From the NCBI GenBank assembly GCA_043809245.1, contig JAZDDZ010000048.1:1-51356 (forward strand): a stretch of DNA of 51,356 bases, read 5' to 3'. Below, piece by piece: positions 12,296 to 15,362 of the stretch (its first letter is position 1; every line of letters starts with the position of its first letter). Below the pieces are notes generated by a model, which was not told the DNA's origin, made no database searches, and saw only the letters and a list, made by a program, of their open reading frames with translations. Both the position numbers and the translations under genes were made by a program. Origin of the DNA: Candidatus Iainarchaeum sp. GTDB taxonomy: Archaea > Iainarchaeota > Iainarchaeia > Iainarchaeales > JAZDDZ01.

Positions 12296-13513
12296 TTAAG
12301 CCTTAACCGCGGCTTTCTTTATTTCCCCGTTTAAAACTTCGCCTGCGCCGCCGAGGTTAATGAGTTTCTTTAGGCTCTGCAAGAGCTTTGCCTTTTTTGC
12401 GGATTTTTCAAAAGAGTTTTCAAGGACTTCTGAAAGCGTTGAAACGGGAATAACCTTGATTTTCTTCAGTTCTTCTTTTGCAATCACTATGTCCTGCAAG
12501 TTGGCTTTTGGAATAATCACTTCCCTGAAACCAGCCTTGATTGCGGAGCTTACCTTTGCAGTAATGCCGCCGACAGGCATTACTTCGCCTCTCACGCTCA
12601 AGGAACCAGTCATTGCAAGCGATTGTTTCACGGGAATTCCTTCCAACGCGGAAATAACTGCGGTTGCAACTGAAACGCTTGCACTGTCCCCTTCAACCCC
12701 TGAATAGGTTTGCAGGAACTGGATGTGCAAATCAAAAGTGGAAATGTCTTTTCCGCTCAGTTTTTTCACCAAAGCCGAAACATTCTGCACTGCTTCTTTT
12801 GCAATTTCCCCAAGTTTTCCTGTTGCAATGATTTTTCCCTCAGCCCTTGAAGCTGCAGGCGCAACCTCTGCCTCAATCGGCAGAACCAACCCCGCGTCTC
12901 CATCGCCTGAAACCGCCAAGCCGTTAACCCTTCCAACAGCTGTTCCCTCAAAGAGGTAAACCTGGTAATCCCTTTTCTCTTCCAAAATTTTGTTCATCAT
13001 CTGCTGTTCAAGCGTTCTGGCACTCATTTTTGCTTCAAGAACATCCTGCGCTGAAACGGATTTGTGGCCTTTTTCCTTTGCAATGTCTCCCGCGGCCCTC
13101 ACAAGGCCCCCCAAATCACGGAGCTTTAAAGTCAGTTTGTTTTTCCTTCCCGCTCTTCTCCTTGCCTCGAAAACAATTGATTCAACCGCTTCCCTTGAAA
13201 AAGCAGGAATCTTTGCGTCCTTTGCAACTTCCTGTGCAACGAATTGCACTATTTTATCCCTGTTCTCAGGATTATCATCCATGTCCAGGTTCATGTAAAT
13301 CTCGTAACCATAACCCCTGATTCTTGAACGCAAAGCAGGATGCACTTTTCTCAGGTCCTCGTAATTGCCTGCTGCAACCAAAACAAAATCGCAATTATGA
13401 ACAGCAACCCCATTCGCAAGATATGTGCCGGCGCTGGTTTTAAGATTGTAAACCATTCCAGCATAGTCAACCTCTTCAATTGAAACAATTTTTTTGGTGG
13501 AAAAATTAAACAT
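12296..13513 (-). CDS. lonB: LonB protease piece 3: IntC2 (40 aa) plus C-terminal AAA+ part and Ser-Lys protease domain
   Basis: ...[35 protein letters not shown] and PVGGITAK. Confidence 0.95.
13394..13513 (-). mobile_element. Split intein 2, C-terminal half (IntC2)
   Basis: Blocks F/G VYNLKT...[10 protein letters not shown] followed by +1 Cys. Confidence 0.93.
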
Positions 13514-15362
13514 TTAAATCACCTGCCTTTTTCCAGTAAAGCAGGGTAGTGTAAGGCATTTCAAGTTCGCGCGCCGCTCTTTTAAGAGTCAACCCGGCAT
13601 TAAGCAGGTCTGATGCGGTTCTTTTATGCATGGAAGAATAATGCCTATATGTAGGCCCGACTGTTTTCATAATCGTGTTTTTAGAAAGCATGATTCGCCT
13701 GCCAATTTCGTTTATTGTTAAACCGCTTGCCCGAAGCTCCAATGCCTTGGCTTTGTTTGATCCAAGCTCAACGCAATCTTCAGAGTATGCAACAGCTTTT
13801 CCAAACCGTTTTTTCATGTACTGTGCTTTACGGCTTGCATAATGAATTTGAACTGCCTTTTCAAATTGCATCACATTCTTATAATTATTGAAAATAGTAA
13901 AAGAATAACGCGCTGCTTTTTCAGCAGCACCCCCCTTGGATCTCGTATATTCTGTTGCCGTGATTTTACTGGTTTCCACGCCGTTTTCAGACAAAAAAGC
14001 CCTTATCTCATTTAAAAAAGCTAAATGTTGCTTTTCAAACCTTTTAACCTTGGCCATCACAAAAGAAATTTTATCGCTAGCGTTTTTTATTTTACCGCAC
14101 ATTTCACAGGATAACAATGCTGAAAAGAACTCCTTTTTTGTTTCGGCAGAAAAATTAATCCACAATGGAACAGCAATTGGCTTGGGTACCTTGCTGCCCA
14201 CTGGGACTCCGAGCGCTGAGAAAAAACGTGAAATGAAAGCATTATGCGCTGAAACTTCTAATCCGCTTCCTTTTAGGGAAGTCGTTTTTCTAAAAACAAA
14301 ATTTGAACTCAAATCTGTTCCAAAAACCTGGAGCAAATCGCGCTTAAACATCTCCAAGTCCGCCAAACTATTTGAATCTGTTGAAAAAAAAACGCCTGTT
14401 CTTGTTAAACCCCCATCACCGAACAGTGCTCCGCTAATCCTTGCAATCAACGGTAATCTGGGATCCGAATAAAGCAAAGGAAATAACCCTCTTTCCCCCA
14501 ACCAATCAATGCAACGGGAAGCCCTTGGAACAGTTCCTTTTTTCCAAGCAGCAATTGTTTTGCAATCTACCCCCAGACCTCTGGCCTTCAATAAGGGGTT
14601 TGCCTTCCAAGCAGCATATGCTTTTGCAATGCGCTGATTTTCTTTACTGTAGGTTTCCATAATTTTCACATCAGAAATTATTGCCTGAATTGCTTCCACT
14701 TCCTGCCAAAGGCTAAGGTCTTTTGCCTGAACAAAATCAGCCGGTGTTTTAATCGGATGCTCTTTGGTCGCCAATAATTCAGTGCCATCGTCAAAAATAA
14801 TTTTCATCAGTTTACCAGAAAATGGCCTCCTGTAAACCCGTTCAAGCATATCCAAAAAAATTCCATTATCTTTTGGAACCCAAATTTTAATAGAATCATT
14901 TAAGTCCAAAAACTCAGCATAGCCCTCTCTGTTAACTTGCCCTGCTCTGCTTTCAAACAACCTGTTTACAAACTCGTCAATCGCGGTTAATCCGTTTTCA
15001 GTGGCAATTAATGTTCCGCTTGGAAAACACGGCACTGCCTCAGTCCTAGTCATTGCCCCGCTTGACATCTCGCTCTGGCCTGTAATGGAATACTTTTTTT
15101 CCTGCATTGCGGTCAAAAGCTCCTGCTGTGCCTTGGGTGAAAGCGTTGCAATTTCATCCAAAAACAATACTCCCCCAGAAGAGCGGTGAATCATGCCGGG
15201 TTCAATGCGCAAATGAGGGGGGGTGCCCAAGCCACCGGAATTGTGCACTAAAATATCTTCAACGAACAAGTTGCCGGTTTCAGTCGTAACGTTGTAAACG
15301 TGGCCTTTGAATGGGTGCTTTTTCACGGAAGAAACATTTCCCTGCGTGGTTTTGTAATTCAT
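13506..15362 (-). CDS. lonB: LonB piece 2: IntC1 (41 aa), 70-aa Walker B extein, IntN2 with LAGLIDADG and HTH domains (507 aa)
   Basis: ...[12 protein letters not shown]...VLFLDE...[11 protein letters not shown]; block [14 protein letters not shown]. Confidence 0.93.
13509..15029 (-). mobile_element. Split intein 2, N-terminal half (IntN2) with fused homing endonuclease
   Basis: Cys1 CFPSGTLI, TxxH block B, LAGLIDADG-like [10 protein letters not shown], two C-terminal HTH-like segments; ends in a stop codon without blocks F/G. Confidence 0.9.
13518..13524 (-). promoter_or_regulatory. Shine-Dalgarno AGGTGAT for Lon piece 3
   Basis: Minus strand reads GCAGGTGATTTAAATGTTTAA: SD 4 nt before the ATG, with an 8-nt overlap of the upstream ORF. 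Confidence 0.8.
15240..15362 (-). mobile_element. Split intein 1, C-terminal half (IntC1)
   Basis: [20 protein letters not shown] followed by +1 Ser. Confidence 0.93.

Follow-up and report, generated by a model that had tools for sequence, protein, structure and literature searches.

Naturally split inteins carry their N-terminal (IntN) and C-terminal (IntC) parts on separate genes, each fused to one half of an essential host enzyme, as in cyanobacterial DnaE and Nanoarchaeum equitans PolB, where the intein is divided at the endonuclease insertion point; in both cases there is one split per protein and no endonuclease. The permuted order IntC-target-IntN on one polypeptide, with both halves taken from one intein, is that of SICLOPPS (split-intein circular ligation of peptides and proteins), in which the chain cyclises. 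Here we describe a locus in contig JAZDDZ010000048.1 of Candidatus Iainarchaeum sp. (assembly GCA_043809245.1), which was analysed over its full length of 51,356 nucleotides (nt) and is called the window below. In this locus, the gene encoding the AAA+ protease LonB is broken at two sites by two split inteins (intein 1 and intein 2), and the middle one of the resulting three pieces bears IntC1 and IntN2 on either side of a short extein. We consider it probable that the only full LonB of this genome is rebuilt from three polypeptides by two class 1 trans-splicing reactions with a pre-existing specificity.

Unlike the inteins of DnaE and PolB, intein 2 is split and yet retains an endonuclease, and LonB is split twice. 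The order of domains in the middle piece is that of a SICLOPPS construct, but its two halves belong to different inteins (28-39% identity), and linear ligation to two other chains is to be expected. Contiguous archaeal inteins such as TliVMA (7qss), PI-PkoII (2cw7), and PI-PfuI (1dq3) have the same make-up of splicing domain and LAGLIDADG endonuclease as intein 2, whereas in LonB the chain is broken between the endonuclease and blocks F and G at site 2, and both before and after the endonuclease at site 1. In the parts of the survey by Novikova et al. (PMC4760082) that are used here, split inteins are defined as mini-inteins in two parts, and 10 LonB inteins are listed, all from Euryarchaeota.

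The fractured genes of Dassa et al. 2009 (PMC2677866), in the portions of that study cited here, resemble site 1 in that a split intein interrupts a conserved enzyme gene and its halves enclose an endonuclease gene that stands free on the same strand, and also in that the intein halves bear opposite local charges, both charge polarities being found among these inteins. Those loci are fractured in two, whereas LonB is fractured twice; the invaders there are GIY-YIG or Vsr-like, whereas here the endonuclease is LAGLIDADG-like, the intein's own type; and the contigs there are phage-like and marine, whereas LonB belongs to DPANN archaea. Moreover, the endonuclease of site 2 is fused to IntN2, so the fractured-gene layout applies to site 1 only. 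The middle fragment of engineered tandem trans-splicing has the composition IntC(a)-extein-IntN(b) as well; in the cited sections on such systems (PMC11168065; bioRxiv 10.1101/546465), the fragments are ligated in the right order only with two pairs free of cross-reaction, and such pairs are designed with charge networks between the halves. These systems are man-made from unrelated inteins, whereas the LonB pair is natural and homologous and carries a 390-aa endonuclease module on one of its halves. A literature search, with subscription-only journals outside it, retrieved neither a split LonB intein nor any natural protein that carries two split inteins; within the literature searched, the layout of the middle protein of the three is otherwise known only from engineered ligation systems.

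LonB in three reading frames

Window positions 12296 to 17607 hold four open reading frames (ORFs) arranged head to tail on the minus strand, three of which tile the LonB profile TIGR00764 (Table 1). Only the three pieces jointly give a full-length match to this profile; piece 3 by itself reaches 512.7 bits against a cut-off of 516.6 bits. The TTG listed as the start of piece 1 (17607) is probably wrong, the true start probably being the ATG at 17556, because 14 relatives align from that ATG. The extein lengths (207 or 224, plus 70, plus 365 aa) sum to a LonB as large as the uninterrupted orthologues (625-698 aa), and exteins 1, 2, and 3 are 70%, 90%, and 77% identical, respectively, to one uninterrupted LonB, with no internal stops. 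Elsewhere in the genome, Lon_C was matched only partially, in a 792-aa ORF on another contig that gives a weak, partial match to the LonB profile (E 2.9e-13). Judged by these profile matches, the three-piece gene is the only full LonB of the genome.

Table 1 Features of the three-piece LonB locus (positions in the window).
Feature	Position (nt)	Strand	Content
Piece 1 ORF, 347 aa from TTG	16564..17607	-	LonB N-terminal extein and IntN1; TIGR00764 positions 3-217, E 2.5e-63
Extein 1	16936..17556	-	LonB N-terminus, Walker A GLPGTGKS, two hydrophobic segments, end ...GDVRHDPLQ224
IntN1, 123 aa	16567..16935	-	First residue Cys225; block B T-P-E-H
Free-standing endonuclease gene, 324 aa	15497..16471	-	Lies between IntN1 and IntC1; homology to the LAGLIDADG domains of inteins
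Piece 2 ORF, 618 aa	13506..15362	-	IntC1, extein 2, IntN2, and endonuclease
IntC1, 41 aa (piece 2 residues 1-41)	15240..15362	-	Blocks F and G; end ...LVHN (H40-N41), then +1 Ser42
Extein 2, 70 aa (S42-P111)	15030..15239	-	LonB AAA+ segment with Walker B; TIGR00764 positions 181-268, E 2.1e-34
IntN2 splicing part (about residues 112-230)	14673..15029	-	First residue Cys112; block B T-K-E-H
Predicted LAGLIDADG homing endonuclease with helix-turn-helix tail (about residues 231-618)	13509..14672	-	Fused to IntN2; AlphaFold2, Foldseek
Piece 3 ORF, 405 aa	12296..13513	-	IntC2 and LonB C-terminal extein; TIGR00764 positions 266-607, E 1.5e-153
IntC2, 40 aa	13394..13513	-	End H39-N40, then +1 Cys41
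Extein 3	12299..13393	-	LonB lid and Lon_C protease domain; Pfam Lon_C 1.2e-32, LonB_AAA-LID 6.2e-9

The original prediction, which concerned piece 2, had proposed an IntC1-extein-IntN2 order around a 70-aa extein with the Walker B segment; its coordinates, strand, and length are exact, and the profile matches confirm both the layout and the extein. Extein 2 begins with SGGLG and ends with EAVP, contains the Walker B stretch G64-V-L-F-x-D69-E70, the Walker B residues of which are invariant in 14 relatives, and is also matched to the LonB structures 3k1j and 4zpx. Extein 1 ends with DPLQ, its residues H220, D221, P222, L223, and Q224 being invariant in 15 sequences, and extein 3 starts with CDFV. 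From these ends, the junctions that had been predicted for a cyclic product (EAVP-SGGLG) and for a product skipping extein 2 (DPLQ-CDFV) follow as sequences. IntN2 is more than half an intein: it forms part of a 507-aa fusion that had been overlooked, in which a complete LAGLIDADG endonuclease and a helix-turn-helix tail extend about 390 residues past the splicing part.

Both inteins have the sequence features of class 1, i.e. Cys or Ser at position 1, block B, and a C-terminal Asn followed by a +1 nucleophile. The splicing region of IntN2 matches TIGR01445 over residues 112-204 with 38.3 bits (cut-off 24.5), and its family profile matches the solved inteins Mja KlbA (2jmz, 5.4e-13) and PI-PkoII (2cw7, 7.6e-9); the Pfam Intein_splicing match of piece 2 stays under its cut-off. 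The nucleophile at position 1 is Cys225 in piece 1 and Cys112 in piece 2, and in the relatives the site 1 inteins begin with Cys or Ser and the site 2 inteins with Cys. Block B, T-x-x-H, reads TPEH in IntN1 and TKEH in IntN2, and conforms to T/S-P/K-x-H in all 39 distinct rows. A terminal Asn is found in all collected IntC sequences, followed by Ser at site 1 (HN-S42) and by Cys at site 2 (HN-C41), while the penultimate residue of IntC1 varies among relatives (H, K, S, or C). As in naturally split inteins, IntN and IntC stand on separate ORFs, are fused in frame to exteins, and keep the break in independent genomes. From these residues and this arrangement, we infer that both inteins splice.

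The junctions between the ORFs differ at the two sites. At site 1, spacers of 92 and 134 nt flank the endonuclease gene. At site 2, the ATG of piece 3 overlaps the stop of piece 2 by 8 nt, a Shine-Dalgarno-like AGGTGAT lies four bases before this ATG, and a stop codon in the frame of piece 3 immediately precedes it. The anatomy of the locus and the intact state of its catalytic residues are thus matters of observation, as is the conservation described below.

Recurrence and forms of the two inteins

Among 41 genomes of the same order (its own included), LonB is encoded in one frame in 30, in two pieces split at site 1 in 6, in three pieces in 4 (G000, G001, G009, and G035), and as a fragment only in 1. 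Two of the 30 one-frame genes (about 1130-1160 aa, in the relatives G016 and G031) carry a contiguous site 1 intein. With IntN2 and its endonuclease as the query, 5.8 billion protein clusters yielded only 13 proteins, that of the window included. Seven of them start with a complete IntC1 (P0002-4 and P0008-11), two are incomplete at the N-terminus, P0005 and P0012 have no intein at site 1, and P0013 is a LonB N-terminal part with IntN1 fused to an endonuclease. Scans of species genomes (best 80 of 362 matches kept) and of metagenomes (best 7 of 38 loci analysed, L116-L122, the other 31 matching the endonuclease part only, at 22-30% identity) add the middle pieces of L028, L030, L116, L118, and L122. 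Altogether, at least 14 distinct middle pieces have the IntC1-extein-IntN2 layout (the window, L015, L016, L017, L028, L030, L116, L118, L122, P0002, P0003, P0004, P0009, and P0011), and they occur in two DPANN phyla.

The three-ORF layout is present in independent assemblies and is therefore not due to chance or to an assembly error. In all 10 loci where both can be seen, the stop of piece 2 and the start of piece 3 overlap, by 1, 8, or 14 nt, and a G-rich Shine-Dalgarno-like motif lies upstream of piece 3 in most of them. Because overlap lengths and frames differ between loci, a shared sequencing error and a conserved programmed frameshift are ruled out; a frameshift joining pieces 2 and 3 was accordingly rejected as a candidate. 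In a quick, poorly supported tree of the C-terminal extein, the five three-piece rows require 5 changes, the number also obtained with shuffled labels, and sit among both Iainarchaeota-like and Nanobdellota rows, which fits a spread by homing or a repeated loss.

Each intein also occurs without the other. The split site 1 intein stands alone in 6 of the 41 genomes and the contiguous one in 2, while the split site 2 intein stands alone in P0005, P0012, and L121. Site 1 is found in four states: contiguous (L012, L027, and L117); IntN-endonuclease followed by a separate IntC (P0013 and L046); IntN, free endonuclease, and IntC (the window, L016, L018-L020, and others); and IntN and IntC with no endonuclease gene between them (L051 and L122), with other ORFs in that place in L015 and L017. 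For site 2, the only form seen is IntN-endonuclease with a separate IntC, and it coexists with every state of site 1, including none (P0005 and L121) and contiguous (L117). Judged by these combinations, inteins 1 and 2 are separate mobile elements. A contiguous intein 2 was not found among longer proteins, a blank that is weak evidence; the sole hit there was an intein of an RNA polymerase subunit at 28% identity. The two matches among longer relatives of IntN1 are uninformative on the classical Lon intein site.

Several individual loci illustrate this variety. In L117 (2176-7265), a 1291-aa ORF holds a contiguous site 1 intein, extein 2, and IntN2-endonuclease, and is followed by an overlapping gene for IntC2 and the C-terminal part of LonB, so that this LonB has one cis intein and one trans intein. 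The metagenome contigs L121 and L122 coincide in intein 2 and in the exteins over the portions compared; L121 lacks intein 1, and L122 has a split intein 1 without endonuclease gene, pieces 1 and 2 overlapping by 11 nt. The pair looks like a presence/absence polymorphism of intein 1. In P0013 and L046 (5158-7206), IntN1 is still fused to an endonuclease and IntC1 opens the next ORF, which is the architecture of intein 2; this form is a likely intermediate towards the free-standing endonuclease gene. Piece 1 of L017 (1863-4271, genome G001) measures 802 aa and has an extra contiguous intein near Walker A, which gives a LonB with three inteins. ORFs of about 230 aa with a weak match to zinc-dependent phospholipase C lie between the LonB halves in L017 (4324-5025) and L019 (3066-3758) and may be passenger genes within the intein cassette. 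On a contig labelled Methanosarcinales, L050 (2776-7347), the LonB matches of a 1523-aa frame are far apart, which suggests several contiguous inteins.

The endonuclease fused to IntN2 is well defined in the AlphaFold2 model of piece 2, with block means of the predicted local distance difference test (pLDDT) mostly between 83 and 97 over residues 231-570 and lower values in the last 50 residues. Foldseek matched it to TliVMA (7qss, 6.9e-11) and also to PhoVMA, PI-PkoII, PI-PfuI, PI-SceI, and I-DmoI, the last with a template modelling score to target of 0.6-0.65. Residues G315, D316, G317, G318, and E420 are invariant in 14 sequences. By its modelled two-motif fold and its conserved acidic residues, the module is a LAGLIDADG homing endonuclease with predicted activity. 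The free-standing ORF of site 1 matches an RtcB-intein model over region 218-452, the endonuclease region (E 2.4e-15), although it gave no Pfam match and no sequence match in the Protein Data Bank. It is 55-65% identical to the free-standing ORFs of L016, L018, L019, and L020 and 32.5% identical to the endonuclease region of the contiguous site 1 intein of L027. By these alignments, the ORF is a LAGLIDADG-like homologue of the endonuclease domain of the intein itself.

The genome as a whole is unusually heavily loaded with inteins, with 21 intein-N matches (E<=0.01) in 1.48 Mb, 18 of them above the cut-off; only the two in Lon lie in short reading frames. Within the window, a 1708-aa open frame at 45374-47881 on the minus strand contains two intein N-terminal matches.

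Read by eye, A/T-rich TATA-like motifs precede both piece 2 and the endonuclease gene (CTATTTAAT, in 15363-15496 and 16472-16563) and stand about 25 nt before the ATG of piece 1 (TTTTTAAAT, in 17557-17600), which suggests that each ORF may own a promoter. A scan for bacterial promoters and terminators, a type not suited to archaea, gave nothing above shuffled sequences. A search of sequencing runs listed no RNA run and one DNA run with 0.07 of the words, from which no conclusion on expression or habitat is drawn. On the other side of LonB, a DUF373 gene is a conserved convergent neighbour and directly abuts LonB in relatives; in the window, a 311-aa ORF without Pfam family (11326-12261, minus strand) lies between it and piece 3. 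No homologue of this ORF was found in any relative locus retrieved, and it may be a passenger or an insertion.

Likely specificity of the two pairs

Since IntC1 and IntN2 stand on one chain, their reaction would circularise the 70-aa extein, while a reaction of IntN1 with IntC2 would skip Walker B; the original prediction was right that both consequences follow from the topology. We therefore compared the two inteins. In five three-piece loci, IntN1 and IntN2 are 28-36% identical and IntC1 and IntC2 28-39%, and the same half is 31-81% identical between genomes; by these alignments, inteins 1 and 2 are homologous but distant. From general experience, split-intein halves at 28-39% identity are expected not to cross-react.

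The two inteins also differ in local charges. In the 8 residues before block F, the net charge ranges from 0 to +5 in all 31 distinct IntC1 sequences and from -4 to 0 in the 6 of IntC2 (negative in 5), and the IntC2 of the metagenome set L116-L122 is likewise acidic there. The IntN strand before block B has the form G-a-x-x-d-hydrophobic. In intein 1 of the Iainarchaeal type, position a is E in 10 of 11 sequences and d is D or E in 11 of 11; in intein 2, a is K and d is K or R in 14 of 15. The polarity is thus opposite between the two inteins in the window, L015, L016, L017, and L028. Two exceptions, L030 with GEVIEI in IntN2 and RR in IntC2 and L019 with GKLVDI in IntN1 and SERDFK in IntC1, show changes in both partners that look compensatory in the alignments. 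The pattern is confined to the local strands, the net charge of whole halves being uninformative as a measure of complementarity. In the cited part of Beyer et al. (bioRxiv 10.1101/546465), a charge network connects an IntN strand with the first strand of IntC; its polarity in gp41-1 is the reverse of that in NpuDnaE, and orthogonal pairs were engineered on its basis.

The only full LonB of the genome requires correct pairing. As 14 distinct middle pieces retain the layout, the cognate reactions very probably prevail. The specificity most likely follows from the divergence of two inteins that belong to different insertion sites, and it is probably aided by the translational coupling of genes 2 and 3. 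The pair specificity and the role of the charges are deduced here from sequence comparison. In the AlphaFold2 model of the whole of piece 2, residues 1-74 and 87-112 are below pLDDT 50 and IntC1 is not docked on IntN2, which agrees weakly with IntC1 not completing the IntN2 fold in cis.

The alternative that survives best, although we regard it as unlikely, is that the risk of cyclisation actively selected for strict orthogonality, shaped the reversed charge code, and restricts the alleles that can coexist in one LonB gene; selection for strict orthogonality had been part of the original prediction. The reversed polarity in the five loci named above speaks for it, and so does L030, where both inteins differ from the Iainarchaeal type and the IntN strands are opposite all the same (NLIKI versus EVIEI). 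An intramolecular reaction of IntC1 with IntN2 would also be kinetically favoured, and in the consulted part of PMC11168065 engineered multi-fragment ligation needs inteins that do not cross-react, against cyclisation. However, the charge pattern of intein 1 is the same in six genomes that have only site 1 occupied, and that of intein 2 is the same in P0005 and L121, which have only site 2 occupied; the three-piece locus L122 has no reversal, with two positive IntN strands; and only about two independent lineages are at hand for comparison. An identity of 28-39% should in itself prevent cross-reaction, and two inteins at different insertion sites would show this much divergence anyway, so that the divergence lends no support to selected orthogonality. 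Since the charge patterns also occur where the inteins live alone and the reversal is missing in L122, there is no evidence that the specificity was selected in place. Of the earlier interpretation, then, the topology and the need for specific pairing stand, whereas selection in place and alternative products lack support.

Much less probable is a non-covalent role, in which the intein halves would only hold the LonB fragments together without splicing. Fragments of a phage ribonucleotide reductase reportedly assemble through interaction domains derived from a mobile element, and many relatives have K, S, or C instead of His as the penultimate residue of IntC1, which would suit such a role. 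All class 1 nucleophiles and block motifs are nevertheless conserved in all collected sequences, which disfavours it, because full conservation of the motifs is not expected if binding alone mattered. A Walker B segment flanked by intein masses of about 160 aa and about 550 aa would, moreover, be unlikely to work within an AAA+ hexamer.

Even less credit is due to the idea that cross-reactions occur and are put to use, giving either the 70-aa Walker B extein as a cyclic peptide or a LonB from which Walker B is missing. The topology alone allows the chemistry, with the +1 Ser after IntC1 and Cys1 of IntN2 on one chain, but no observation supports such products, including the alternative splicing products that had been put forward earlier. 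The halves concerned are 28-39% identical, the AlphaFold2 model does not dock IntC1 on IntN2 (a weak argument), and an AAA+ protein that lacks Walker B is an inactive ATPase. Finally, although the genome is a draft in 55 contigs and pieces 2 and 3 could become one frame through a single-base shift within a stretch of about 6 nt, we give almost no weight to frameshift errors from sequencing or assembly in contiguous inteins, or to a decayed pseudogene, given the same breaks with other overlap lengths and frames in independent assemblies, the stop directly before the ATG of piece 3 in its own frame, the 92- and 134-nt spacers and separate endonuclease gene at site 1, the highly conserved exteins without internal stops, and, as weak evidence, the failure to find a longer protein with a contiguous intein 2.

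Proposed assembly of LonB and its meaning

The reconstruction of LonB by two trans-splicing reactions remains the best explanation because the sum of the exteins matches the size of the orthologues and the residues essential for splicing are kept. Under this reading, piece 1 would provide a membrane-anchored N-extein with IntN1, piece 2 would provide IntC1, the Walker B extein, and IntN2 with its endonuclease, and piece 3 would provide IntC2 and the C-extein. IntN1 and IntC1 would join the chain at DPLQ-S, and IntN2-endonuclease and IntC2 would join it at AVP-C, yielding a LonB of about 642-659 aa and releasing four intein fragments. With genes 2 and 3 overlapping, the halves of intein 2 would be made together. 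Correct pairing would result from different alleles, different insertion sites, strong divergence, and, in this lineage, reversed charges on the contact strands, and this specificity was most likely present before both elements met in one gene rather than evolved there.

Several points weigh against this reading or parts of it. The TIGR01445 match of IntN1 (residues 227-325, 22.4 bits) falls just under the cut-off of 24.5. As for the charges, both IntN strands of the three-piece locus L122 are positive (HLIKL and GKVIRI), and intein 1 of the Woese/Nano type combines a positive IntN strand with a net positive start of IntC. The contact of the two charged strands is deduced from the position of the motifs together with the network described in bioRxiv 10.1101/546465; in the cited part of the same work, swapping the zipper charges left cross-activity in NpuDnaE. 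The undocked IntC1 of the structural model also says little, because the alignment comprised 14 sequences and the extein was disordered too.

A bolder version can be entertained only tentatively. The LonB locus would then hold a natural pair of homologous split inteins made mutually orthogonal by a reversed charge zipper, the avoidance of cyclisation would set which alleles may share the gene, and intein 2 would be the first case of a split intein functioning while a complete homing endonuclease remains attached, a direct intermediate in the origin of split inteins.

In the literature searched, every natural case of a split intein or fractured gene involves a single split per protein, and ligation of three fragments by two pairs free of cross-reaction appears as an engineering method only. 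If the proposed assembly is true, nature already builds an essential, membrane-bound AAA+ protease by tandem trans-splicing. The two related pairs would then offer a test case for the specificity of intein halves, for which charge-reversed forms and loci with and without each intein exist, and the forms seen at site 1 would document steps from an endonuclease-bearing intein to a split intein.

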